This document shows positions 11,735 through 28,721 of a DNA stretch of 64,000 bases, in pieces. This DNA comes from a virus, in the IMG/VR virus record IMGVR_UViG_3300009431_000004, one strand, 5' to 3'. Position 1 is the first letter of the stretch. The number at the start of each line of letters is the position of its first letter. The translations under genes were made by a program, and so were the position numbers. The notes under the pieces are model-generated. The model had not been told where the DNA came from. It worked only from the letters and a program-made list of their open reading frames with translations, and made no database searches.

Positions 11735-12543
11735 CTCTTCCCTCCCTTCTTCGGATTCTCGGTCACGGTCTGGTCCAGCATGGATGTCGCTGACTCATCC
11801 TTGAACCCTTGGCTCATGGTCGGCGCGACTCCCGTAGTCCCGGCTGTCGGGAACGCAGGCTCGACCCCTTCAGGAAGGGTTGAGCCTTCCAGCTCGATTG
11901 CAGGCCACAGGCAGAGGGTGTTCTCGACGTGGGAATCCCACGAGATATGTTCGTGGTTGAGCCTCTTGAGAGGGTGGTCCACAACCCATGTCGGCTTGTC
12001 GAGATGGAGCCGGTGGGTGATGGCTTCGAGCAACACCTCCGGCATTGCCGCGTTGCGGGCCACCTTGACCCCCACAATGATGATTAGCAGCTCGGGAGGC
12101 TCAGTGAGGTCCGCGAGACTTCCAAATCGGTTAGAGGGGCGTCTACGGCGGCTCACGTCCACATCTGGGTCTACGACTTCGTTGGCCCCGGAGAGCCACG
12201 CATCCATGAGGTCGGTGTCCGAGACGACGGCGAAGTACCACCGAGGCCCCATGCGGATGGCCACATGGCGCAGATGCTCCTTCAGGGCCACGTCCGGGGA
12301 CGTGATACGCAGGCACTCCTTGTCACGTCCCCAGAGAGGTGATTCGGGGATGGGCCGGGCGTCCCCAAGACCCTTCCAACCGCGCTCGACGTTGGCCTTC
12401 ACGTCCCTGACGACGACGCAGGTGCAGATACGGGTCTGACCGCCCGTGATGCCGGTCTGCTCCTCCGCCGGGATGGGTATAACCCCCCTGCCGTGGCAGT
12501 GAGGGCAATCTACCTTCCCGTCACCTTGCGGATAGTCGCTCAT
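11731..12543 (-). CDS. DnaC/IstB-like helicase-loader homologue with degenerate ATPase motifs
   Basis: N-terminal CPHCHGRG..CTC; ELLIIIVG..EVLLEAITHR..KPTWVV; lies immediately upstream of the helicase. Confidence 0.65.
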   Translation of the reverse strand: MSDYPQGDGKVDCPHCHGRGVIPIPAEEQTGITGGQTRICTCVVVRDVKANVERGWKGLGDARPIPESPLWGRDKECLRITSPDVALKEHLRHVAIRMGPRWYFAVVSDTDLMDAWLSGANEVVDPDVDVSRRRRPSNRFGSLADLTEPPELLIIIVGVKVARNAAMPEVLLEAITHRLHLDKPTWVVDHPLKRLNHEHISWDSHVENTLCLWPAIELEGSTLPEGVEPAFPTAGTTGVAPTMSQGFKDESATSMLDQTVTENPKKGGKR

Positions 12544-15506
12544 TGGTCCTTGGCGTCCTCACGGAGCGCATGGAACAGGTCTGAAATCTCGTTCTCGGCG
12601 GCGATGATGGTGTCGTCGTCTTCGCCCTTGATGCGTTTCCCCAAGACGGCCTCTACCAGCTTCATCTTCTTCCGCAACACTTCCATTACCCGATGGTCAA
12701 CGGTCTTCGACCTACCCTTGGCCACAAGGTGGATGACGTAGCAGCGGTCGTGCAGCGACCCGATGCGAATCATCCGGCCCACGAGCTGAAGGAAGTCTCC
12801 GGCAGACCACGGGGTGTCCACACAGATGACTGCCTTCGCCGCTTGCAGGTTGATTGCCTCGGACCCGGCGGCGGTGATGCAGCATACTCGCGTCCCGCTC
12901 TCCGGGTTCTGGAAGGTGGCCATGGCGTCCTGCCGCTGGGCTTCGTTTTCGGACCCGGTGATGCGGACGGCCTCGACTTTCTTGGTCTTGAGAGTGGGCA
13001 TGATGATGTCAATCATCTTGCGGAACCGGGAAAACACGATGACGTTCTCTTCGGCAAGGTCGCCTTCGGTCAGCATGTCGGTGAGCTGGGTCAGCTTGGG
13101 GGACTCGGTTTCGATGCCGAGGAGTTCGAGGTCATTGCATATCTGCTGGCAGTAGGTGATGGCCGTCAGCTTCGTGACCTCGGTGACTTCCCCGGTCCCC
13201 TTCTCCAACAGACCGGCCAGAGCCTCGTCGTACTTTCCCTGCTGTTCGTCGGTGAGGGGGATTTCCACGACCTGCGGAATCAGGACGGGCAGCTCGGAGG
13301 CCACCTCGTGCTTGGGCCTGCCGAGGAAGTAAGGGTCGATGACATCCTTGAACTCCTGAATCCGCTCCGGGGTGTACCCGATGATGACCGGCACATGCCG
13401 GTTGGACCGGGGAATTTGCTGCATCCGAACGACGCAGTAGTACATCATGAACTTGTTGTGGTTCATGCCGAACAGGCCGGGCATGACCACCTGATAGATG
13501 CCGTAGCCCTCCATGAGATGATTCTTGATGAGGGTCGCGGTCAACCCCCATGCCCGCTTGGCACTGGCGGCCATGAACTTGCAAACCTGATGGACCTGCG
13601 TCCGGGGGTTCTTGAAGGCCGTGGCTTCGTCGAAGACCACGATGTAGTCCGTCAACCCCTGAATCCGGGAGATGTCCCTGACGGCGCTCCTGTAGCCCAT
13701 CACGACGACGCACGGACCCGTGGACTTCTCCCAGTAGTCGATGGCCTTCATGCGCTGGGTGGGTGTCCCACGGCACCCGATGACCCGGACGTTCCGGGTG
13801 AACTTGGAGAACTCCCGGACCCATTGGGTAGTGCCTGACTTGGTGGTCAGGACCACGACCTTCTGCGTCGGGTCCTTCTCCCAGATGTGGCAGAGCGCCG
13901 CGATGGTTTCGAGGGTGTTGTGGTTAATGAGGCCATTGCCGACGAAAGAGTGAGCGGGGTCATCAACTTCAATGTCAAAGACCTCTTTGAAACCCTCCGT
14001 GACCTTTTCTATAGGGTCGTAAAAAAACTTTTGTTGGCAGACATTCCGAACAGCTACAACTGACGGATGGTCAGAAGGAACATCGACTTCAGCGGCCACT
14101 TCCAGCATCTTCTCCAAATAGGCATAAGTGGGATTCCGAGTTCCCTGCCGGATGTGGCCCATAGTAGTATAGAAACCACTCCCCCACCGAGTTGAGATGC
14201 CTTCTCCACTATGCCCATGAAGACCGGCTTTCTCGTAAATCTCTGCCCTCAGATTTTCGACAAGCTCCTTGGCAAAAGGAATCACATCATGATTCGGATT
14301 CGAGAGGTCAGGCAATATCCCTTGCAGCCGTTCTTGTTTCCGGGGCGAGATAAACCCGATTACTTTTTGGAATTGCCGGGCATCATTTCCAAAGATGGTC
14401 AGTCTCCAATACGTATGGGCGTGACCAGTCGCTATCTTTGTGCTTCGTTTAGCCACTATGCCGAACTTGAGCAGGAGAATTTGAACCTCTCGGGCAAGTT
14501 GTTCCGAAGCTGTGGAATACTCAATACCCCCAGTGGACACGGCTCCCCCGTCTCCTTCAAACAACCCCCGCAGGAATTCCCGGACGGACCTCTCCGTTGC
14601 CCTCAAAATTGGGTCCGGCACCCTCTTGTCTGCCGAGAGGGTGTAATCCACACCCATCCCCTCTAAATACCGGCGAAGAAAAACACTGTCGATATTGGTG
14701 TCCGTCTGAACACGCCGAGCATCAAAACCAAGTTGAACCCCCAACAAGCGCCGGATGTCTTTCCACACCATGGGATTTTTCACTGGGGATTGTGATATGG
14801 TGAACTTATACCGATTATTGACCCAGCCTTCCGCCACAATGTAACCGAGAAGACGGGCCAATTCTGGATTCATTACATCAGGTACATCAAAGACACGAGC
14901 GTTTCCCGCCACTGACGGAAGTTGCAAAGCGGGTTCTTGCATTGGGAACACCCCCCGGCTTCGGGGAATACACACATAATCCCCTCGCTCAAGGTGTTGA
15001 AGCTGCTGGAATTCCTCACCAGAACTACCACGCATATATAAGGGATGGACAAAGGAACCCTCAACTTCAAACCCGTACCGACTTCTTACTCTACGAGTGG
15101 GCTTGTATCCCCCGTAATAAAAAGCCCGGATAGGGGCGGTGCGCCCCTCTTCCCCTACGCGGATTCGCCAATTACTACTTGACGGTGCGGGGCAAAAGGT
15201 ATCCGGCTTCATCCCAGCGGGGCACAGGTCACGGATACGCACTAAACCTTGATTTGTTTCCATCAGGGTCGGCCCTGTCACGCACTTGCCCAGTCCCGTG
15301 TCGTCTCCGAGGACGAACCGGCGCATCCCCACGAGGTGCATGATGCCTTGCGCCTGATAATAGCGGATGCGGAGAGGCTTCTCCGTCCCGTCGAAGTCCG
15401 TGTACGTCTCCTTGAGGTGCGTGGTCCGCTTCAACTTCAGGTCGGTCCGCGTCCGCATGGTCTTGAGCTTCTTGTAGGTCTTCGCAAGCTGAGAGTCGGG
15501 GTCCAT
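12540..15506 (-). CDS. SNF2-family (SF2) helicase/translocase containing an intein
   Basis: RYYQ, LGDDTGLGK|T, VVFDEAT, GLTATLIKN, VIVFSRF, SEAINLQ, PWS..QLVGRMIRIG. Confidence 0.95.
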   Translation of the reverse strand: MDPDSQLAKTYKKLKTMRTRTDLKLKRTTHLKETYTDFDGTEKPLRIRYYQAQGIMHLVGMRRFVLGDDTGLGKCVTGPTLMETNQGLVRIRDLCPAGMKPDTFCPAPSSSNWRIRVGEEGRTAPIRAFYYGGYKPTRRVRSRYGFEVEGSFVHPLYMRGSSGEEFQQLQHLERGDYVCIPRSRGVFPMQEPALQLPSVAGNARVFDVPDVMNPELARLLGYIVAEGWVNNRYKFTISQSPVKNPMVWKDIRRLLGVQLGFDARRVQTDTNIDSVFLRRYLEGMGVDYTLSADKRVPDPILRATERSVREFLRGLFEGDGGAVSTGGIEYSTASEQLAREVQILLLKFGIVAKRSTKIATGHAHTYWRLTIFGNDARQFQKVIGFISPRKQERLQGILPDLSNPNHDVIPFAKELVENLRAEIYEKAGLHGHSGEGISTRWGSGFYTTMGHIRQGTRNPTYAYLEKMLEVAAEVDVPSDHPSVVAVRNVCQQKFFYDPIEKVTEGFKEVFDIEVDDPAHSFVGNGLINHNTLETIAALCHIWEKDPTQKVVVLTTKSGTTQWVREFSKFTRNVRVIGCRGTPTQRMKAIDYWEKSTGPCVVVMGYRSAVRDISRIQGLTDYIVVFDEATAFKNPRTQVHQVCKFMAASAKRAWGLTATLIKNHLMEGYGIYQVVMPGLFGMNHNKFMMYYCVVRMQQIPRSNRHVPVIIGYTPERIQEFKDVIDPYFLGRPKHEVASELPVLIPQVVEIPLTDEQQGKYDEALAGLLEKGTGEVTEVTKLTAITYCQQICNDLELLGIETESPKLTQLTDMLTEGDLAEENVIVFSRFRKMIDIIMPTLKTKKVEAVRITGSENEAQRQDAMATFQNPESGTRVCCITAAGSEAINLQAAKAVICVDTPWSAGDFLQLVGRMIRIGSLHDRCYVIHLVAKGRSKTVDHRVMEVLRKKMKLVEAVLGKRIKGEDDDTIIAAENEISDLFHALREDAKDQ
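13917..15284 (-). mobile_element. intein (456 aa) with LAGLIDADG homing endonuclease, inserted in Walker A of the SNF2 helicase
   Basis: GK|CVTGPT start, block B GSFVHP, LLGYIVAEG and FLRGLFEGDG, VFDIEV..SFVGNGLINHN|T end; visibly AT-richer. Confidence 0.95.
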
Positions 15507-17047: not shown

Positions 17048-20000
17048 GTGAGTAACGCCTCCAAACGAGTCGCCCGACGCTATCTGGCCTCGAAGATGTC
17101 CGCGACCCCCGACCCCAAGCCGGTCGGCGCGGGCCGCCTCATCGACCTTGCCAATTTCGCTCTGGCCTTCAGAGCCTACGGCAACTGGCTGGTCGAAGCG
17201 GGCCAAGACGGGAGCAAGGACGCGCTCTACGGTGCCGGGTTCAAGTTGGGTCGCCGGTATATGGTCGAGCTGGTCAACGGCACGTCCCAGCACATCGCCC
17301 CACTGATGGACGACAGCAAGGCGGCAGCCGTCGCGCCCGCCATCCGAAAGTCACAGAGAGCAGGAAATCCGGTGGTCACGATGGGCCGCCACGCGGATAT
17401 GTTCCAGACGGTTCTCCCGTGGATGTTGACGAAGCAGGCCATCTTCCGGGGGATGTTCCAAGGGAAGGTGGCCAAGGCTGCCCGCATGGTCGCCAACGCG
17501 GCCCAAGAAGAGTCCTTCCCGGCGCTCCTGAACAAGTCCGCCAACATCATGCCGGTGTCCGGCCTGCGAATCCCCTCCCAGTGGATTACGAAGGCAGCCA
17601 AGGCCGCCGGGGCGGAGCTGACCAGCACCGAGCTGACGATGGTGGACGCGAAGCTGGCCAAGGCACTCGGAGAGGACCTCAAGTCCGCCGAGACGGACCT
17701 CGCCGTTGCCCAACCCAACACACCCGAAGCCGCCGCGCTGGAAGAAAGGCGGACCGAGATTCTGGCCCGTATCGAACAGATGGCGGAAGAATCCGACAGC
17801 CCGGATACCGTCCGAGCCGTCGCCGGGTCTGTCCAGCAGATGTCGGACCACGCCACCGAAACGGGCCGCCGTCTGGGTCACACCATTGACCAAGAGGCGG
17901 CGATGATAGCGCAGGGGAGGGCCATCATCGCTGCGGGCGCAGGCTCCGGCAAGACCCGCGTGCTGGCCTCGAAGGTCGCCTACCACATCAATGAGCTGGG
18001 GGTTGACCCCACGGCCATCCTCGCCACCACCTTCACCACGAAGGCCGCAGGCGAGCTGAAGAAGAGGGTGGCCGACTACGGGGCCGTCATCGAGGGTGTC
18101 GCGGACGACAACTTCGGGACCACCCACTCCATCGCTGGCAAGATGCTCAACCGCCGGGCAACCGCGTTCCGGCGTCCCAAGTACATCGGCAAGAAGGAGA
18201 TGTGGAAGCAGTCCCTCCTCATCCGGCTGGCCATGGAGCAGGTCCAGATGACCGGCGGCGGGGAGCATCTCGCACCCCAGCCCAAGGGTTTCTGGGAGGA
18301 CGCCTTCGTGCCGGACACCCCGCCGGGGCAGGATACCGACATGGCGGACTACCAAGCCGCCGTTGACGACGCCATCGGGTTCTATCGCTGGGCTTCCGAG
18401 AACTGGCAAAAGCCGTGGAGGAACCGGCCCGGCAACCAGAAAGCTGCCGACTGGGCTGGGCGTGTCGCCGCAGACCTCATGGCCATCCGCAGCACGCCGC
18501 CCAGCCAGCTCACTCCTCGGCAGAAAGACTGGCTCAACAAGAGTGTGTTCCCCAAGGTCAAGCGGGTCCAATACCGTGTCGCCGCCAAGAAGAAAGAGGA
18601 CGAGGCACCCCCGGAGCCGAAGCAGCAGAAGAAGAAGCTCGACGACTACACCTACTACAAGAGGCCCGCAGGGCAGTGGTTCAACCTCGGTCGCAAGCTC
18701 ACCCGAGAAATCGGGGAGGGTGCCGAGATGGGCATCCCGCTCGGGGAGTTCAAGAACGCCATCTCCATCCTCAAAGGCAAGGGCATCTCCCCGTCCGAAG
18801 CATGGACCGGACAGGACGGCCCCTACGGTGAAGCGTCTGACGCCGCAGCCGTCTACGCCGCCTACGAGTGGCTCAAAGGCAGCAACGGGGAGCCGGAGTT
18901 CCAGTCCACGGGCGACATGGATGACATCCTCATCGACACCGTGAAGGCACTGGTGGGAAGCCCGACCCTCCGTCGGCAGATGGAGGCCCAGTACAAAGTT
19001 CTGCTCATTGATGAAGCCCAAGACCTCAACCGTGTGCAGCATCTCCTGTTCGGCCTGATGGCGGGCTACCTCGACGCCGAGACGCTCGAACCCCACGCCG
19101 ACAAGCACATGAGCGCCGACACCTACTGCCTGATTGGCGACGATAAACAGGCGATTTACGAGTTTCGCGGCGCGGACCCCGGTGAATTTATTGACAAATC
19201 CAACCTCACCGAAGGCGGCGACAACTTCTCGACCAAGATTCTGGACCTGAACTTCCGGTCCGGCGAGGCCATCGTTCAGGGGGCCAACCGGCTCATCGCC
19301 CACAACTGCATCGAGGAGGCCACCCCCATTAACACCCCCCAAGGGGACCGAAAAGCCTCTGACCTCCAAATCGGGGATTCAATCCTGACCTACCGGAATG
19401 GTGAAGTTGTCACGGGACAGGTATCTGAGATACATGAGTCCCTATGGACTGAAGGGTTTTGTATACGCACCCACAAAGGTCATGAGATTGTCATGTCTCC
19501 GAACCATCGCCTGTGGGCATCCGAACCTCTAATCCCGGACAACATGGTTTCGGTATACCTGATGTACCGGGAGGATTTCGGGTATCGCATTGGGACCACT
19601 TCTTGCGGGGGGCGTGTTTCTCAAGGTTCTAATTATCCTCAGTCTTTAGGGGCTAGGGCTGCGATGGAACATGGAGAAAGAATGTGGATTATCGGGGTAT
19701 ACCCCACAGTAGATGAAGCACTCCATCAAGAAAGCATCCTATCCCTTCGGTACAGCATCCCTATGACGGTATTCCGCAACAGGGGGAGGACGCCTTCGGA
19801 TGACCGAATTGTTCGCATTTTTCAAGAGTTTGGGAGTAATGGATTACGCCTATTGGAAGAACGGCACCTGTCCCCTGAGTACCCCCATTGGGCTGCCCGT
19901 TCCCAACGCGGGCATGGCCGCAACCGGGAGGTGATTTCCTTCATCGCTCACGGCGCACGGGGGAGTCAGGTTTACCTCCGAGGAGTAGATGGGGATATTC

Positions 20001-21514
20001 ATACCCGGAAACAGTTTGCGGTCTACGAGGAAGCCCAACAATTTGTTTGGGGCCTAAGTCGGGGAACTGGACATACCATCATCGAGAAAATGCAAATCGA
20101 GGACGCCGAGTTGCACCTGATGACTGCTTCAGCCTTAATGGAAGGGATGATGATTCCGGTGTTAGATGAGGGTATGGTGACACTCCAACGTATCCAGTCT
20201 ATCCAAAGAACAAAAGGCACCTTCTTGGACTTAGGCATCGAAGGAACTTGCAATTTCTTTGGAGGGGGAATCCTGAGTCATAATTCCAAACAGGTGCCGA
20301 TGGTCTGCAAGGCCAACGTGGACCGCAACGGCACAGGGCAGCTCATCAGCCGTCCAGCGGAAGACTCCGCCGAGGCCGGTGTGCTGGTGGCCGAAGAAAT
20401 CGAGTCCATGATGGAGACGGCAGAGGACGATGCCTCGAAGTACATCGACTTCGGTGTCGCTGTCCGCTCGAACGCCGAGGCATACCACTACGGGTTGGAG
20501 ATGCTCAAGCGGGGCATCCCCTTCAAGTCCAACGCCCGGTTCTTCAGCGACCCGAACACCAAGGCGCTCATCGGCTGGCTCACCATCGCGGAGAACGGTA
20601 TCGACGGCCCTCCGGCCATGATGGAGCAGGCGGTCAAGGATGCCATGAAGGCTCCCTACAGCCGCCTCGGAAAGGCTCTCCTGAACACCTTGATGGAGGA
20701 CGCGGGCGGCACTCCGTGGACCAAGTACCTCGTGGACAACGCCTCCACCATCTACCGGCGCGACCCGTGGAAGGGATTTCTCGAACACTTCGCAGAGAAC
20801 ATCAAGGCTGCCTCGAAGCTCACCGGCACACCCCCGGACATTCTGGGGAAAATCATGCTGTTCAACGGGGTGGATGGAACCTCGATGCAGACCGGAATGA
20901 TTCGCAGTGTGGCCGAGAACGAGGACATCATGGCCGAGCTGGCCGCCGCCTCCGAGGGGGGCGTTGTCACACAGGAGCAGCTCGACGAAGCGGCCCTCGC
21001 GCCGGTCGAACCTCTCATCGGCCTCATGTCCGGCAAGGAGGAACTGGGGCCTGCGATGACCTTCGTCCGCAAGCTCCGGGCGGTCAACGACAAGGTGACT
21101 TCCAAGGACACCGAGGAGGAGCTGGACCGCGACGCCGTGACCATCGGGACCATGCACTCGTGGAAGGGCCTCGAATGCCCCAACGTCTACGCCCCCATGG
21201 TCGGCGGCAAGTTCCCCCGGACCGGGCCGGATGGTACGGCGCTGGAAAGCCCGGACCTGTGGTCCGAGCGTCGTCTTGCCTACGTGGCCATCACCCGCGC
21301 CGAGCAACGCTGCTGTGTCCTCGACATCCCCAACCCCAAGACCGGCCACCGGAGCCAGTTCCTCGCAGAAGCCTGTGTGCAACCGGAGGGGATGCCTGCC
21401 GACGGTGAGGGGAAGGTTCCGAAGACAGCCGCGTGGCAGCCTGCTCGGGATGAGATAGAGGAGCTGATGGACCTCGGCTACGCCATCGAACAGAAGCTCA
21501 CAGGAGGACAGTGA
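17048..21514 (+). CDS. UvrD/PcrA-like SF1 helicase with N-terminal extension, internal insert and intein
   Basis: AGAGSGKT, TTFTTKAA, GTTHS, LIDEAQD, IGDDKQAIYEFRGA, LNFRS, TMHSWKGLE, ERRLAYVAITRA. Confidence 0.95.
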   Translation: MSNASKRVARRYLASKMSATPDPKPVGAGRLIDLANFALAFRAYGNWLVEAGQDGSKDALYGAGFKLGRRYMVELVNGTSQHIAPLMDDSKAAAVAPAIRKSQRAGNPVVTMGRHADMFQTVLPWMLTKQAIFRGMFQGKVAKAARMVANAAQEESFPALLNKSANIMPVSGLRIPSQWITKAAKAAGAELTSTELTMVDAKLAKALGEDLKSAETDLAVAQPNTPEAAALEERRTEILARIEQMAEESDSPDTVRAVAGSVQQMSDHATETGRRLGHTIDQEAAMIAQGRAIIAAGAGSGKTRVLASKVAYHINELGVDPTAILATTFTTKAAGELKKRVADYGAVIEGVADDNFGTTHSIAGKMLNRRATAFRRPKYIGKKEMWKQSLLIRLAMEQVQMTGGGEHLAPQPKGFWEDAFVPDTPPGQDTDMADYQAAVDDAIGFYRWASENWQKPWRNRPGNQKAADWAGRVAADLMAIRSTPPSQLTPRQKDWLNKSVFPKVKRVQYRVAAKKKEDEAPPEPKQQKKKLDDYTYYKRPAGQWFNLGRKLTREIGEGAEMGIPLGEFKNAISILKGKGISPSEAWTGQDGPYGEASDAAAVYAAYEWLKGSNGEPEFQSTGDMDDILIDTVKALVGSPTLRRQMEAQYKVLLIDEAQDLNRVQHLLFGLMAGYLDAETLEPHADKHMSADTYCLIGDDKQAIYEFRGADPGEFIDKSNLTEGGDNFSTKILDLNFRSGEAIVQGANRLIAHNCIEEATPINTPQGDRKASDLQIGDSILTYRNGEVVTGQVSEIHESLWTEGFCIRTHKGHEIVMSPNHRLWASEPLIPDNMVSVYLMYREDFGYRIGTTSCGGRVSQGSNYPQSLGARAAMEHGERMWIIGVYPTVDEALHQESILSLRYSIPMTVFRNRGRTPSDDRIVRIFQEFGSNGLRLLEERHLSPEYPHWAARSQRGHGRNREVISFIAHGARGSQVYLRGVDGDIHTRKQFAVYEEAQQFVWGLSRGTGHTIIEKMQIEDAELHLMTASALMEGMMIPVLDEGMVTLQRIQSIQRTKGTFLDLGIEGTCNFFGGGILSHNSKQVPMVCKANVDRNGTGQLISRPAEDSAEAGVLVAEEIESMMETAEDDASKYIDFGVAVRSNAEAYHYGLEMLKRGIPFKSNARFFSDPNTKALIGWLTIAENGIDGPPAMMEQAVKDAMKAPYSRLGKALLNTLMEDAGGTPWTKYLVDNASTIYRRDPWKGFLEHFAENIKAASKLTGTPPDILGKIMLFNGVDGTSMQTGMIRSVAENEDIMAELAAASEGGVVTQEQLDEAALAPVEPLIGLMSGKEELGPAMTFVRKLRAVNDKVTSKDTEEELDRDAVTIGTMHSWKGLECPNVYAPMVGGKFPRTGPDGTALESPDLWSERRLAYVAITRAEQRCCVLDIPNPKTGHRSQFLAEACVQPEGMPADGEGKVPKTAAWQPARDEIEELMDLGYAIEQKLTGGQ
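19307..20284 (+). mobile_element. intein (326 aa) in the UvrD helicase, with a GIY-YIG-like central domain
   Basis: AHN|CIEEATPI start, block B MSPNHRL, FLDLGIEGTCNFFGGGILSHN|S end; AT-richer; no LAGLIDADG motif. Confidence 0.92.
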
Positions 21515-23933: not shown

Positions 23934-24566
23934 CTACACGCCCTGCGGAAGCAGGTCGATGATTTGCACGCCATGTTCACGGGAGAATTCGATGCCGCCC
24001 ACGGAGTCGAAGTCGAACAGCTTGTCGCCGTTGGCGTCCTGCGCCTCGTACCCCTGCACGGTCGTCCCGTGCCGGTTCATCTTGAGCGCGTGGACCAGCG
24101 ACCACGGCTCGCCCAACGCGACCTGTGCCGCCGTGGGCGTGAAAGCCACCGGCTGACCCTTCACGGTTGCCGGTGCCGGGGGCGGAGCCGCCACGACCGC
24201 TGCCGGAGCAGGAGCCGGGCCGGTTCCCGTGGCTACCGCCGAGGCGACGGCCCCGCCGAGCTTCGCAATGCTCTTGGGGGACATGCGCCGGTAGGGGGCA
24301 TCCACGTAGCCGTAGCCCTTGTTCAGCTTCTCTTCCACCTTGTCACGGAGCTTGGACCACGTAATCAACGTGGTCTGGGCGCTCGAACCAACGGCTCCCC
24401 AACCGACCTCGACCATCTCGTCATGGGCGCGTCCGGTGGCGAACCAAAACTTCTCCGACCATCCCCCGGCGTTCGCAGAGTTCGGGCCTCGGAATTCCAG
24501 CCTGAAGGACCACGGGCGTTTCCGCGTCGCCAGCCCTTCGGCATCGGTGATTGTCAAACTGGCCAT
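23934..24566 (-). CDS. WGR-domain protein
   Basis: start MASLTI; SEKFW..VEVGWGAVG..EEKLNKGY is the WGR pattern; Pro/Ala linker to a second small domain. Confidence 0.75.
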   Translation of the reverse strand: MASLTITDAEGLATRKRPWSFRLEFRGPNSANAGGWSEKFWFATGRAHDEMVEVGWGAVGSSAQTTLITWSKLRDKVEEKLNKGYGYVDAPYRRMSPKSIAKLGGAVASAVATGTGPAPAPAAVVAAPPPAPATVKGQPVAFTPTAAQVALGEPWSLVHALKMNRHGTTVQGYEAQDANGDKLFDFDSVGGIEFSREHGVQIIDLLPQGV

Positions 24567-24592
24567 CGTCAAAAACCTCTCTCGCCTCAAGC

Positions 24593-24624
24593 ACTCAACT
24601 CGCCAGTTTCGGCTCTAAGCCCCC
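24593..24624 (-). promoter_or_regulatory. 32-bp conserved upstream element, copy 1 (putative early promoter)
   Basis: reverse complement reads GGGGGCTTAGAGCCGAAACTGGCGAGTTGAGT, identical to 37628-37659. Confidence 0.75.
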
Positions 24625-24653
24625 CGATTGTAGTTTATTTTTCTTTTATGAAA

Positions 24654-24686
24654 GGGGGCTTAGAGTCGCGTGACGCGAGTGGGGTA
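24654..24686 (+). promoter_or_regulatory. conserved upstream element, divergent copy 2
   Basis: GGGGGCTTAGAGTCG-N6-GCGAGTGGGGTA, same spacing as copy 1, back to back with it across an AT-rich spacer. Confidence 0.7.
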
Positions 24687-24709
24687 CGTAGGAAGATGAG
24701 GTGATGACG

Positions 24710-25091
24710 ATGTTGCCGTTTCCTCGGGGTCGTCTTCGGGATTCTCATGTCCGGCTTCACGGAGTTCCCGTGGAGGTCGGTCGTCGTGGGCGGAGCTGCC
24801 GGTCTTTTCTTGGCCGCCATGGACATCATCCAACCCTACGTCCGCGAACGGACATGGGACATCACGAGGTTCTCCACCCTGCTCCTGAGCTGGGCGTTGA
24901 TAATGGCCATCGAGTTCGTCCCCGCCGTTCGGAGCGCCGTCCCGTGGATGGACGAAACGCCTGCCTTCCACATCAAACACCCCGTTTGGGGGACGCCCCT
25001 GATGCTCGTCGGCATGGCTCTGGTATTGGCCATCATCATCTACTTGCTGGTGGGGGCCATCAGGAGGAAGGACTATGACGACTCACGTTGA
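24710..25091 (+). CDS. multi-pass membrane protein (in-frame ATG at 24747; probable true start at 24710 with a 1-nt frameshift)
   Basis: three hydrophobic segments; FLGVVFGIL continues in frame upstream of 24747; GAGGTG RBS precedes the ATG at 24710. Confidence 0.65.
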
Positions 25092-25203
25092 CCACGCTGC
25101 CATCGCGCAGGTCACGGCGACCAACTGCTGTGTCTGCCGGGCGCACCTGACCGACGCCGAGTCCGTGGAGCATGGTATCGGAGGGAGGGTTCGATGCCTG
25201 TAA
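25075..25203 (+). pseudogene. orphaned original 5' end of the DUF6011-like gene, truncated by insertion
   Basis: AGGAGG RBS; MTTHVDHAAIAQVTATNCCVCRAHLTDAESVEHGIG then unrelated sequence; 20 of 23 aa identical to the N-terminus of the gene at 27118. Confidence 0.88.
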
Positions 25204-25415
25204 TCTTATTGCCCGTGGTCATTGTGGCTACATCGGTTTGGGTATGGGCGGATGCCCGCGCCCTTGGTGTTCCCAAATTGTACGACCGAGGACAAGTTCA
25301 GCTTGCCCCTTTCGAGTGGTTTGTTCTTTGCCTACTGTTCTGGCCCATCACATTCCCGGTCTATCTTGCAAGAAGACGTAGCTTCAGGGAATTGCGGAAA
25401 TCTGAAGAAAGTTGA
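25194..25415 (+). CDS. small two-helix membrane protein
   Basis: GGAGG RBS; IWVWADA-like motif (SVWVWADA) and WFVLCLLFWPITFPVYLARR. Confidence 0.75.
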   Translation: MPVILLPVVIVATSVWVWADARALGVPKLYDRGQVQLAPFEWFVLCLLFWPITFPVYLARRRSFRELRKSEES

Positions 25416-25446
25416 CCACGGCATCGGACCCTGATACCATCCAACC

Positions 25447-25578
25447 ATGAGTATCGACCTCGACAACATTCGGTGTCGGGACTGCGGACGACGAGTTAAG
25501 AATCCGGGTTACAGAATCACGTATAAGGATTTGGCAAACCGGCTCTGCCCTGAATGTAAAGCAACAAATAACGACTAA
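25447..25578 (+). CDS. 43-aa zinc-ribbon microprotein (not in the ORF track)
   Basis: MSIDLDNIRCRDCGRRVKNPGYRITYKDLANRLCPECKATNND; two CxxC motifs. Confidence 0.6.
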   Translation: MSIDLDNIRCRDCGRRVKNPGYRITYKDLANRLCPECKATNND

Positions 25579-25613
25579 AGTTAACCCGCTGGCCAACGCC
25601 CGAAGTGAGGAGC

Positions 25614-26423
25614 ATGAAACAACTACTACTTTTTGATAGCGCACCAAAAGATCGCAACTGCTCGCCAGTCGGCGTTGAACGTCTTGTTGGGAGTCGTAGC
25701 ACCCAAGCCAGAACCCACCTAGATTTATTTAGTGGTATTGGTGGCTTTGCTCTTGCTGCAAGATGGGCAGGGCTTAAAACTGTGGCGTTTTGTGAGATAG
25801 AAGATTTTTCCAGGAGGGTATTAAGCAAGAACTTTCCGGGCATACCGATACACAAAGACATTAGAGAATTAGAAGGGAGCAAATATGAAGGGATTGGCAT
25901 CATCACAGGGGGATTCCCATGTCAAAACATTAGCAGAGCCGGGACCGGAGCGGGCTTGTCTGGGCATAGATCCAGTCTTTGGTCGGAAATGTTCAGAGTT
26001 ATTGGAGAAGTTCGGCCAAAATGGGTCATTATTGAAAATGCCAGCTCCCTGCGAGGTAATGGGCTTGCGTCCATCCTGCAAGATTTATGGACGCTCGGGT
26101 TCGATGCGGAATGGCATATTATATCAGCAGCCTGCGTTGGTGCCTCACATCAACGGGAAAGAACGTGGATTATTGCAAACTCCGACGGTGGAGGATGCGA
26201 AGCGGCAAGGATCACAGAGAGCTTGGGTAAAGTATTTGCAGGAGAAACATACAAGCAGTTGCCGCCTGCGGAATCAGGCCGCTTTCTTGGACGAGAAGGA
26301 TGGGTACCTGAACCCAGAATGGATCGGATTACTGATGATGTACCCGGCAGGATGGGCGAAATTAGCGGCTACGGAAATGCGATAGTCCCACAGGTTGCTT
26401 ACGAAATACTGAGATGTATTTAG
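25614..26423 (+). CDS. DNA (cytosine-5)-methyltransferase, alpha-type subunit
   Basis: motif I DLFSGIGG, IV GGFPCQ, VI IENA, VIII HQRERTWIIA, X GNAIVPQVA; no motif IX in this frame. Confidence 0.93.
   Translation: MKQLLLFDSAPKDRNCSPVGVERLVGSRSTQARTHLDLFSGIGGFALAARWAGLKTVAFCEIEDFSRRVLSKNFPGIPIHKDIRELEGSKYEGIGIITGGFPCQNISRAGTGAGLSGHRSSLWSEMFRVIGEVRPKWVIIENASSLRGNGLASILQDLWTLGFDAEWHIISAACVGASHQRERTWIIANSDGGGCEAARITESLGKVFAGETYKQLPPAESGRFLGREGWVPEPRMDRITDDVPGRMGEISGYGNAIVPQVAYEILRCI
25885..26385 (+). CDS. nested alternative-frame methyltransferase beta-type subunit
   Basis: 166-aa ORF wholly inside the MTase gene in AT-rich DNA; GGGAG RBS; LLQTPTVED and GYLNPEWIGLLMMYPAGW (TRD/motif IX-like). 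Confidence 0.75.
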   Translation: MKGLASSQGDSHVKTLAEPGPERACLGIDPVFGRKCSELLEKFGQNGSLLKMPAPCEVMGLRPSCKIYGRSGSMRNGILYQQPALVPHINGKERGLLQTPTVEDAKRQGSQRAWVKYLQEKHTSSCRLRNQAAFLDEKDGYLNPEWIGLLMMYPAGWAKLAATEMR

Positions 26424-26453
26424 ACACCCAACAGGCGCGTGGGCCGCTTCCCC

Positions 26454-27098
26454 ATGGAAGCAAATGCCAAAATCGTCGTCTCCCCGGCAATGGACCAAGT
26501 GATAATGGGGTCCATCTTGGGAGACGGGCATCTTGAAAGACCTCCTCCCGGAAGCCTGAATTGGGGATTGGGTATTAAGCACGGCCTGAAACAAGAACCT
26601 TATGCCCTGCACAAAGCCAACCTACTCGGCCCCCTAGTTTCAAAAGTAGACCACCCAACGGAACGGGTACGAGTCAGAACAGTGAGGCACCCGCACCTCA
26701 CAGAATGGGCTTCTCTGGCAGTCCCGGCCAAGAAGAAAATCGTCCCGCCGGAACTGATTTCCCAAGTCGGACCTTTGGCTCTCGCTATCTGGTACATGGA
26801 TGATGGGTCATTTCTGACTAAATTGAACAAAGATGGCACCGTCTACAAGCTCATCCGAATCGCGTCCTTCTCATTCACCCCGAAAGAAAACAAAGCCTTG
26901 ATAACCATGCTACAAGAGCGTTTTGAGATTGAGGCACATATCTGGAAACAGCCCAACAAGCGAAAACCGAAATCCCCTTACAAAGGGATTTGGATGTCAA
27001 AAGGTGAAGCCGAGAAGTTCCTGTCCATCACACACCCCTATCTTGAACCAACCTGCATGGCCCACAAATGGGGGCTTAGAGAGCTTTCTACAGAGTAG
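26454..27098 (+). CDS. free-standing LAGLIDADG homing endonuclease (double motif)
   Basis: IMGSILGDGHL and LALAIWYMDDGS. Confidence 0.9.
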   Translation: MEANAKIVVSPAMDQVIMGSILGDGHLERPPPGSLNWGLGIKHGLKQEPYALHKANLLGPLVSKVDHPTERVRVRTVRHPHLTEWASLAVPAKKKIVPPELISQVGPLALAIWYMDDGSFLTKLNKDGTVYKLIRIASFSFTPKENKALITMLQERFEIEAHIWKQPNKRKPKSPYKGIWMSKGEAEKFLSITHPYLEPTCMAHKWGLRELSTE

Positions 27099-27117
27099 AA
27101 ACTGTAGGAGGTGTCAC

Positions 27118-28083
27118 ATGAAACCCTCAACAAGAGCGCAACTTGACCGTATCGCCCTGATGACCGCCACAAATTGCTGTGTTTGTCACGCCCGATTGAC
27201 TGATGCAGAGTCCTTAGAGCATGGCATAGGTCCTGTATGCTCCAAGAAATACTACAACCCCGAGCATCAGCCGACCGACGACATGGTGCTGGACGCCCTC
27301 GGCCTCGTGGCCGTGTCAGGGCTGCCGGACAACATCGTGGATGGCTTCCTTCAGCTCGTGAACAACGACAAGGTGAATGCTCGGAAGGGCTGCAACCTGC
27401 TCATCTATTGGGCCTCATGCAACTACGACAACCGGGAGGAGGTCTTCCGCTGCTCCGCCATCATCCGCACCCTCGGGTACACGGAGCTGGCGGACAAGCT
27501 CGAAATCGACCGCACTGCTGCCCGGATGGTGGACACCGGCACCGAGTGGGTGGTCTACGTCGGCACCAAGTACAAGTTCGAGAAGGACATGGGCTTCGTG
27601 CAGGGCGCGACCAAGGACGAGAACTCCAAGGTCGGCTCGAAGGTCAAGTGGACCATCCCCTACGCGGAGAAGGACCACTTCTTGGCCGTCCTCGGCCTCC
27701 ACTACGGACGGGAACTGGCCTGTGGGGACAACCCCACCGGGGCCAAGGAACGGGTCTGGACCATCGCCAAGACCTACTGGCGCAACGTGCTGGCCTTCCG
27801 CCACCGGACCGCACAGCCGACATCCATCCCTGCCCCGTCCACCGGAACGACCGGGGCAGGCAGCGGGTTCGTGCCGGGGGAAGTCTGTGTGAACCTCAAC
27901 GGACAGGGACTCCTCGAAGTCATCACCCCCTACGATTCGGGGTTCGTGGCTGCCCTCAAGAACGCGGTCCCCTACCGCGACCGTGCATGGGACACCGTGA
28001 ACAAGCACTGGCGGGTGAAGGCGAAACACTTTGTGACCGTCGCTGGCCTCATCGGTCAGTTCTACGGACAGTATTTGGCTTAA
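27118..28083 (+). CDS. DUF6011-like Zn-finger protein with C-terminal HARP-like domain
   Basis: AGGAGGT RBS; CCVC..LTDAES..HGIGPVC; ITPYDSGFVAALK..VP..DRAWDTVNKHWRV. Confidence 0.75.
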   Translation: MKPSTRAQLDRIALMTATNCCVCHARLTDAESLEHGIGPVCSKKYYNPEHQPTDDMVLDALGLVAVSGLPDNIVDGFLQLVNNDKVNARKGCNLLIYWASCNYDNREEVFRCSAIIRTLGYTELADKLEIDRTAARMVDTGTEWVVYVGTKYKFEKDMGFVQGATKDENSKVGSKVKWTIPYAEKDHFLAVLGLHYGRELACGDNPTGAKERVWTIAKTYWRNVLAFRHRTAQPTSIPAPSTGTTGAGSGFVPGEVCVNLNGQGLLEVITPYDSGFVAALKNAVPYRDRAWDTVNKHWRVKAKHFVTVAGLIGQFYGQYLA

Positions 28084-28111
28084 CAGGGAGGTGCGATGAA
28101 AGCAGGAATCG

Positions 28112-28160
28112 GGAGGTCCAGCCGGACGCCATCGTCTCGGCCTCTACCGGCTGGGCCTCC
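28112..28160. terminator. stem-loop between convergent genes
   Basis: GGAGGTCCAGCCGG ... CCGGCTGGGCCTCC, 14-bp stem with one G-U pair; no U tract. Confidence 0.5.
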
Positions 28161-28166
28161 TAGCCC

Positions 28167-28721
28167 TCACTGAGGGGCCGGGACCGGCGGCTTCTTCGCC
28201 GGAATCTTCTTGTCTACGTGCTTGAACGCCATCTCCCAGTACGCGATGCCCTGACCACCGGCAAGGAAGGCGAACACCGCTGCGTTCTCGATGCTGTACC
28301 CCGCTGCCAGATAGCTGGCGAACGTGGCGAGGCCCCCGACCACGAAGGAAATCCACGGGACGGACTTCTTGAGCTGGCCCAACCACCCTCTTCGACGGAT
28401 GACCCAGATGCAGACCATGATGATAAGCCCGGCGAGGACTGTCCAACTCCCTCCTCCGGCGAGGACCTGCCCCATCATCTGGGCTGCCTCCTCGGGTGTC
28501 TCGGGCGGCTTCACCGCAGCGGGGACGGGTGGAGGTTCTGGGGCTGCCGGAGCTTCGACCTTTTCGGGGGCAGCGGCCACGACCGGGGCTTCGTCAGCGA
28601 CAACGGCTGCTGGTTCCATGACCTCGACAGCCGTGACCCCCGCGTCGGGGTCTGTCTCCTGTGCGATTGCCGGTACGGCCAGCATCATCATGATGGCCAC
28701 GGTAAGGATGAGACGTTTCAT
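28167..28721 (-). CDS. membrane protein with signal peptide, Pro/Ala linker and 2-3 TM helices
   Basis: MKRLILTVAIMMMLAVPAIA|Q; hydrophobic C-terminal segments. Confidence 0.75.
   Translation of the reverse strand: MKRLILTVAIMMMLAVPAIAQETDPDAGVTAVEVMEPAAVVADEAPVVAAAPEKVEAPAAPEPPPVPAAVKPPETPEEAAQMMGQVLAGGGSWTVLAGLIIMVCIWVIRRRGWLGQLKKSVPWISFVVGGLATFASYLAAGYSIENAAVFAFLAGGQGIAYWEMAFKHVDKKIPAKKPPVPAPQ

Follow-up and report, generated by a model that had tools for sequence, protein, structure and literature searches.

Organisation of the duplicated DUF6011 locus

The 64,000-nt stretch of DNA analysed here (hereafter, the window) belongs to the IMG/VR virus record IMGVR_UViG_3300009431_000004, a 170,835-bp contig, and is part of a phage-like replication module with genes for PolA, a DnaB-like helicase, an SNF2 helicase and a UvrD helicase. 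Between positions 24,747 and 28,083, it contains a gene of the DUF6011 family whose 5′ end is present twice (heads 1 and 2). The two heads are separated by DNA of lower GC content that carries a LAGLIDADG endonuclease gene and a C5 cytosine DNA methyltransferase (MTase) gene, and this DNA is referred to below, together with head 2, as the cassette. The features of the locus are listed here with the GC content at third codon positions (GC3), open reading frames (ORFs), lengths in amino acids (aa) and matches to Pfam or to hidden Markov models (HMMs).

24747–25091, plus strand: native upstream gene, 114 aa, membrane-like, GC3 0.75–0.95; marks the resident DNA to the left of the event
25075–25182, plus strand: stranded native DUF6011 head (head 1), 36 codons, a pseudogene stub matched by Pfam and the head HMM
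25183: left junction; native DNA stops after ATC GGA inside the GGNATCGGNCC target motif, and lower-GC foreign DNA follows
25194–25415, plus strand: 73-aa ORF with two transmembrane segments and its own Shine-Dalgarno sequence at the left junction; orphan
25412–25440, plus strand: candidate sigma-70-like promoter (TTGACC, 17 nt, TACCAT); within its spacer, CACGGCATCGGACC repeats the left half of the HGIGP target
25447–25578, plus strand: Zn-ribbon domain of the nuclease, now a separate 43-aa ORF (HMM of the relatives' N-terminal domains, E = 1.9e-16)
25614–26423, plus strand: gene for a C5 cytosine DNA methyltransferase that interrupts the nuclease gene at its linker (Pfam PF00145, E = 1.4e-37)
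26439–27098, plus strand: LAGLIDADG core of the nuclease, I-SceI-like (Pfam PF03161, LAGLIDADG_2, E = 1.7e-25, profile positions 2–155 of 168)
27118–27234, plus strand: foreign replacement head (head 2), 39 codons, GC3 0.46, with its own AGGAGG and GGC ATA GGT CCT at the target position
27235–27250: right junction; GC3 rises from about 0.4–0.5 to 0.8–1.0 directly past the GIGP codons
27118–28083, plus strand: working chimeric DUF6011 gene of 321 aa in which the donor head is joined to the resident body (Pfam DUF6011, E = 8.5e-9)

Head 1 uses the native GC-rich codons, ends in ...AESVEHGIG and matches both Pfam DUF6011 (E = 4.2e-5) and the head HMM (E = 7e-19). It is cut off after ATC GGA, inside GGNATCGGNCC, and runs through six unrelated codons to a stop at 25201–25203. 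The second start, at 27118, lies six bases past AGGAGG (27107–27112) and re-encodes the same N-terminus. In a codon-by-codon alignment of head 1 codons 14–36 (25114–25182) with head 2 codons 16–38 (27163–27231), 20 of the 23 residues were the same, with six codons identical and 14 synonymous, and the DNA identity of the heads was 71% over 80 nt. This confirmed the two-head anatomy with an insert of about 2 kb described in an earlier note on this DNA. Of the two heads, head 1 was nearer to the DUF6011 family consensus. The HGIGP codons recurred a third time, as a short copy at 25417–25431; the two heads excepted, no repeats flanked the cassette or the MTase insert.

The composition of the locus changed at the same places. 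GC content was about 0.61 outside and 0.44–0.55 inside 25200–27250 (ca. 2 kb). GC3 was 0.75–1.0 in head 1 and the upstream gene and 0.42–0.58 in the cassette ORFs, while in the working DUF6011 gene it rose from 0.46 in the 39 head codons to 0.87 in the next 30 codons. Native codon use was back at about 27238–27250, and the foreign composition of the working gene ended within about 20 nt past the GIGP codons. The end of head 1 and this composition step are two independent boundaries, and therefore place the break within about 20 nt. The view of the earlier note that the native head is stranded, and that the gene now begins with a foreign head supplied by the cassette, is supported.

A separate 1010-bp metagenome contig (L109, from JGI sample 3300009373) was 100% identical to 24942–25951, a segment covering the left junction and the junction between the Zn ribbon and the MTase gene. 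Because this contig reproduces them independently, the two junctions are not artefacts of a single assembly. The native 114-aa upstream gene had no family match in profile searches.

A nuclease clade linked to DUF6011 genes

The nuclease core retained LGDG (D29) and MDDG (D121, D122), which were invariant across the clade alignment, and matched I-SceI with an E-value of 1.7e-8 (residues 78–205). Its closest relatives were 38%–59% identical. In all of these, an N-terminal Zn ribbon (...L.C..CG......Y.L....A..R.C..C...) was fused to the LAGLIDADG core in one ORF; the separation of ribbon and core occurred in the window only.

Among the relatives with flanking DNA to inspect, the clade nuclease gene ended 0–60 bp before a DUF6011 gene in eight loci (L085, L086, L087, L090, L091, L102, L107 and L112), which with the window makes nine independent contigs. 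In L105, it lay just after rather than before a DUF6011 gene. The nuclease-bearing contigs ranged in GC content from 0.42 to 0.71 and had unrelated upstream genes. Around approximately 240 loci with distant LAGLIDADG_2 relatives (≤ 35% identity), there was neither a DUF6011 head nor such a Zn ribbon nearby. The nuclease belongs to a small I-SceI-like LAGLIDADG clade with an N-terminal Zn ribbon that is specialised on DUF6011 genes. The earlier note was supported in regarding the inserted DNA as a homing-endonuclease cassette and in placing it at the GIGP codons, which are conserved in DUF6011 genes.

A metagenome scan with the nuclease alignment recovered five loci only, and a scan of genome contigs recovered only distant LAGLIDADG relatives (≤ 32% identity), none of which adjoined DUF6011. 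When the region was compared at DNA and protein level with 50,697 GenBank phage records, neither the cassette nor the DUF6011 gene had a relative there, and only distant MTase and LAGLIDADG matches appeared.

In the activated-sludge contig of L105 (2534–4541), the nuclease gene was downstream of a longer DUF6011-domain gene with the motif CMGP, and a target-like stretch, GCATTGGACC, was found ahead of the nuclease start. In L112 (2860–4713), on a 179-kb IMG/VR contig, the nuclease gene (42% identity) was located directly before a divergent DUF6011 gene.

Uninterrupted DUF6011 genes in related phages

The 321-aa DUF6011 product had 43 homologues of about 300 aa (33%–62% identity), and every complete one had a single intact head. 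At least 10 independent DUF6011 loci had no nuclease gene, and their DUF6011 genes were uninterrupted. Uninterrupted genes were recorded in L081, L084, L093, L096–L100 and L110. The nuclease-free set comprised L081, L084, L110 and nine IMG/VR loci (L093–L101); the latter were recovered with the family alignment, while an IMG/VR search with the single DUF6011 protein returned nothing. L081 and L084 shared the downstream synteny of the window (small minus-strand genes, then a 2100-aa gene) around an uninterrupted DUF6011 gene. The nuclease gene is therefore sporadically present and absent at one homologous position (nine nuclease loci vs. at least 10 without), and empty sites exist at the family level. 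The expectation of empty alleles in the earlier note was borne out to this extent, uninterrupted genes being present in related phages, but not for a near-identical empty allele of this particular phage.

No mention of DUF6011 was found in the literature. A NADAR-domain gene was present within a few genes of DUF6011 in L081 (6945–7397), L087 (2442–2969) and L091 (8060–8620) and was absent from that neighbourhood in the window.

Probable target site and candidate promoter element

A step in GC3 at the G(I/L)GP codons was not confined to the window (0.46 to 0.87) and was also found in L090 (0.53 to 0.97), L085 (0.61 to 0.87), L086 (0.33 to 0.63) and L102 (0.31 to 0.65). Its presence in five nuclease-bearing loci indicates that the gene head travels with the nuclease gene. 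Three independent lines, namely the truncation of head 1, the composition steps and a target-like element in the nuclease promoter, point to the same codons, and the clade nuclease most likely cuts DUF6011 genes at the conserved HGIGP codons (about GGNATCGGNCC).

The third of these lines concerns the element at 25412–25440, the sole promoter-like match within 24500–28300 (3.8 kb) and a candidate promoter or operator of the nuclease gene. A pair of TTGAC and TAnnnT sequences separated by 16–17 nt was located 20–40 nt ahead of the nuclease start in the window, L085, L086, L087 and L091, and in all five the spacer between these −35 and −10 sequences read (C/T)(A/T)(C/T)GGNATCGGNCC. Weaker forms of the element were present in L090, L102, L103, L104 and L107. 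The 11-nt motif GGNAT[CAT]GGNCC occurred once per nuclease-free locus, in the head, and in nuclease-bearing loci 20–40 nt before the nuclease start, within the −35/−10 pair. Elsewhere, it was found about five times in approximately 0.5 Mb (background ca. 1e-5 per base). By analogy with I-TevI, the element might be an operator mimicking the homing site; it might equally be the left half of an ancestral insertion site, or both. Separately, a 10-nt sequence, GTTGACCACG, was repeated at 25087–25096 (head 1 codons V-D-H) and at 25411–25420 (the −35 end of the element), which may be a coincidence or the remnant of a past deletion within a head.

Target variation between carrier and sensitive alleles is plausible. 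The Ile codon of the target position was replaced next to most nuclease genes (CTG, TTG, TTG, CTG, GTG, TTA, ATA and, in the window, ATA), with L112 keeping ATC. ATC was present in 6 of 9 nuclease-free heads and in 1 of 9 nuclease-adjacent heads (p ca. 0.03–0.05). The association is no stronger because of exceptions such as L112, which also breaks the stricter rule that nuclease-adjacent heads never use ATC; changed codons in the absence of the nuclease were found in L110 (CTA) and L081 (ATA). Immunity of the carrier through changed target codons, which the earlier note had proposed, is only weakly supported by the codon frequencies, with a counter-example in each direction.

A methyltransferase gene nested in the nuclease gene

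The core ORF restarts at the homologous RRVGRFPM linker directly past the MTase stop and keeps the MTase frame. Because the relatives carry an unsplit ribbon–core ORF and the core restarts at this linker, the MTase gene is recognised as an insertion inside the nuclease gene. No MTase was present at the corresponding place in any clade relative. These findings revise two points of the earlier note. The Zn-finger microprotein, which had been listed as separate cargo, is the N-terminal domain of the nuclease itself, which the MTase gene has severed from the core. The nuclease can accordingly not be called simply intact, as its Zn ribbon is detached, although the core keeps both LAGLIDADG motifs. 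The split may have crippled the nuclease.

The MTase translation contained FSGIGG, GFPCQ, IIENA, HQRER and YGNAIVP, corresponding to motifs I, IV, VI, VIII and X of C5 MTases. It matched phrog_363 with an E-value of 5.8e-68 (residues 32–271) and was about 40% identical to many orphan phage MTases. To judge from these matches, it is an ordinary small phage enzyme bearing all catalytic motifs.

The MTase and core ORFs share a frame and are separated by one TAG codon (26421–26423), although the shared frame could be a matter of chance (1 in 3). Readthrough of this codon would yield an MTase–nuclease fusion. No tRNA gene was found in the window, and hence no suppressor tRNA for this TAG.

The 73-aa membrane ORF had no homologue but itself among 5.8 billion proteins, and neither it nor the 114-aa upstream gene nor the MTase gene had a counterpart in any related locus. 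The ORF is probably either a piece of the donor's upstream DNA or a passenger.

Proposed mechanism of cassette acquisition

We consider it probable that the locus arose by intronless homing with co-conversion, mediated by a free-standing endonuclease cassette, in a one-sided event that kept the old head. The nuclease would cut the neighbouring DUF6011 gene of a nuclease-free phage about 110 bp into its coding sequence, and repair would copy the carrier leftwards from the cut, through the donor gene head, the nuclease gene and its promoter. As copying runs from the cut back through the nuclease gene, the head, from start codon to cut, is part of the mobile unit, and recipients would be left with a chimeric DUF6011 gene. 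In the window, the right end would have been resolved by homology in the conserved codons just past the cut (27235–27250), and synthesis would have proceeded leftwards through the donor head, the nuclease gene with its MTase, the promoter and about 235 bp more. The left end, which would have lacked homology with the different upstream DNA of the donor, would have been joined directly to the donor sequence at a point some 235 bp ahead of the nuclease promoter, without replacement of the resident head. The resident head (25075–25182) would thus be a dead stub, with the donor head (27118–27234) driving the gene. The MTase gene would have been inserted between the Zn ribbon and the LAGLIDADG core in the donor lineage and would ride along as cargo. 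The synonymous differences between the heads, which the earlier note regarded as immunising recoding, are no special device but simply reflect ordinary divergence of a conserved peptide in a lower-GC donor, whose orthologous head would have been co-converted, as expected for free-standing phage homing endonucleases.

Several observations weigh against this reading. Neither a near-identical empty allele nor a near-identical donor was found in the searches described above, the closest DUF6011 protein being 62% and the closest nuclease 59% identical. The position of the left junction, immediately ahead of the Shine-Dalgarno sequence of an entire small ORF, would be somewhat fortunate if the ends had been joined at random. 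GC3 is low in the final four codons of head 1 (CAT GGT ATC GGA), and homology to an old head carried by the donor could have resolved the left side as well. Cleavage at the GIGP codons is itself inferred from sequence comparison. L112 has a nuclease gene, yet it keeps GGG ATC GGC CCT and lacks the promoter motif; its nuclease may have shifted in specificity or may be inactive. Two blind tests of the rule that a GLGP head implies a nuclease gene upstream gave one right answer (P0032/L107) and one wrong (P0029/L110, a GLGP head with no nuclease gene), and the rule was discarded. Head 2 reads GGC ATA GGT CC; its immunity is unproven, because this is the same target sequence as in the nuclease-free L081.

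Among the alternatives, an unlikely one is the model of the earlier note in its strong form, with two heads as a heritable design of the element. It would insert at the GIGP codons with the old head as its left homology arm and the carried head as the repair, and every homing event would strand the head of the recipient. Conversion tracts that look short on both sides of the site agree with such a design, as does the half target site directly before the nuclease gene in several loci, which is expected if an ancestor had inserted in coding sequence. The GC3-poor end of head 1 looks donor-derived and would also fit, although this argument involves four codons only. However, the eight other nuclease-bearing loci contain a foreign-looking head with merely an approximately 11–17-nt target-like stretch and no stranded native head, so that decapitation with duplication is the exception rather than the rule for the element. 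A longer decayed head in L085 (TAT..RA.LT..HGIGP) was rejected, as 3200 of 5000 shuffles scored equally well. A functional pairing of the nuclease with the MTase, resembling a restriction–modification or addiction system, is very unlikely. In such a pair, the MTase would shield the carrier, for example at a target containing GGWCC, and the nuclease would cut unmethylated competitors. In favour of it, the two neighbouring genes point in one direction and share a frame interrupted by a single TAG, and the target motif contains GGNCC, a possible C5-MTase site. Nonetheless, the other clade members have no MTase, so the nuclease needs none; the MTase gene interrupts the nuclease gene rather than flanking it; and its product resembles many orphan phage enzymes. 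Beyond adjacency, nothing supports the restriction–modification role raised in the earlier note.

It is harder still to maintain that the inserted DNA is excised, from RNA as a group I or group II intron or from the protein as an intein, and that the original head is still the functional start. Joining 25182 to 27232 does give a perfect native frame, but no Rfam match was obtained in 24500–28500 at E-values up to 1 (cmscan, 4227 families, permissive filters), and neither a Hint or other splicing domain nor an intein Pfam match was found. Moreover, head 1 meets a stop after six codons, head 2 has its own AGGAGG and ATG, stops separate all parts, and the nuclease is out of frame with the host gene and has its own start codon. 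The same nuclease-plus-head arrangement occurs in eight loci without an upstream exon. The earlier note was right in seeing no intron, intein, integrase or transposase here. An assembly chimera or a local genomic duplication, with no transfer at all, is the least likely explanation of those considered. Conserved repeats are places where a metagenome assembly may fuse related strains, and the heads form a repeat of this type. However, their DNA identity of 71% is too low to mislead an assembler, an independent contig reproduces 24942–25951 exactly, and chimeric heads recur in four other loci; the composition step indicates a foreign origin, in conflict with a local duplication.

Intronless homing with co-conversion may take a particular form in this clade, which we put forward tentatively and with some doubt as one-armed homing. 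The mobile unit would consist of the promoter or half-site, the nuclease gene and the 5′ head of the target gene up to the cut; it would need homology only in the strongly conserved codons just past GIGP, the other side being end-joined. Such an element could jump between phages sharing only the DUF6011 motif, such as the present carriers with their GC contents of 0.42–0.71 and unrelated upstream genes, and could acquire passenger genes, here those for the methyltransferase and the small membrane protein. The window would then represent a recent jump, too young for the old head to have been lost.

Comparison with known homing systems

Intronless homing with co-conversion has been described for phage endonucleases (PMC2988022). 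As with SegA–G and MobE of T4 (PMC2988022; PMC2790892), the nuclease gene here is intergenic, involves no intron or intein and is sporadic among related genomes, with its predicted target in the neighbouring gene away from the insertion point and the DNA between them co-converted. The system differs from these in that the enzyme is of the LAGLIDADG (I-SceI-like) family with a Zn ribbon, rather than GIY-YIG or HNH, and in that the hosts are uncultured large phages of diverse GC content (0.42–0.71) with unrelated upstream genes. Unlike in T4, the left side did not replace the resident sequence, with the result that the head is duplicated. What the earlier note put forward as the best candidate for an undescribed system falls, as a well-delimited variant, within the biology of free-standing homing endonucleases rather than being new in kind, and it does not alter the basic principles of homing.

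I-TevI represses its own gene by binding an operator that overlaps the promoter and mimics the homing site (Edgell et al. 2004, reviewed in PMC2988022). The element of the window is similar in that a homing-site-like sequence overlaps the nuclease promoter without the part that would be cut. It differs in enzyme family and could equally be a vestige of an ancestral in-gene insertion. If the resemblance is functional, the clade would offer a possible second example, in another enzyme family, of a promoter or operator mimicking a homing site.

The core resembles I-SceI (PDB 1R7M) in size and sequence, and both have a single chain with two LAGLIDADG motifs. I-SceI, the product of a yeast mitochondrial intron, lacks a Zn ribbon, whereas the enzyme of the window is free-standing, phage-borne and split by another gene. 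From this likeness, the window nuclease would presumably recognise an asymmetric site of about 18 bp and leave 4-nt 3′ overhangs.

Among fungal mitochondrial genes, endonuclease insertions in Ophiostoma rps3 and Allomyces atp6 reportedly displace and replace the end of the gene. There, as in the window, the insert is said to bring a partial copy of the target gene that keeps the gene functional and leaves the resident part as a stub. The fungal inserts reportedly duplicate the 3′ end, usually with the nuclease fused in frame. In the window, by contrast, the 5′ end is duplicated and has its own ribosome-binding site, the nuclease is not fused to the host gene, and head 1 stops six codons past the junction. 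In Aeromonas phage Aeh1, a MobE insertion is said to split nrdA into two pieces that are both used and assemble into one enzyme. Both cases involve a free-standing phage endonuclease gene inside a coding region without an intron, but the upstream piece in the window is redundant and dead.

The interest of the locus lies in a previously undescribed clade of free-standing LAGLIDADG homing endonucleases, apparently target-specific and found in large uncultured phages, with a candidate recognition sequence narrowed to about 20 nt by comparative evidence alone. The window appears to preserve a rare intermediate of homing between dissimilar genomes, in which the resident piece was kept and the foreign piece fused in, and thus bears on how homing elements might cross between phages without flanking homology. 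It is also a clear case of one selfish or cargo gene (the MTase gene) nested in another (the nuclease gene).

Other probable homing elements in the window

Homing elements of several kinds occur in the phage lineage of the window. A LAGLIDADG_3 domain, probably an intein, was present at residues 308–384 of the SNF2-family helicase (988 aa; 12540–15506, minus strand), and the orthologous SNF2 helicase of L081 also had intein and LAGLIDADG_3 matches. In the UvrD-type helicase (1488 aa; 17048–21514, plus strand), the N-terminal domain match extended over residues 282–716 against a profile of 271 positions. So wide a span implies a large internal insert, which is possibly an intein.

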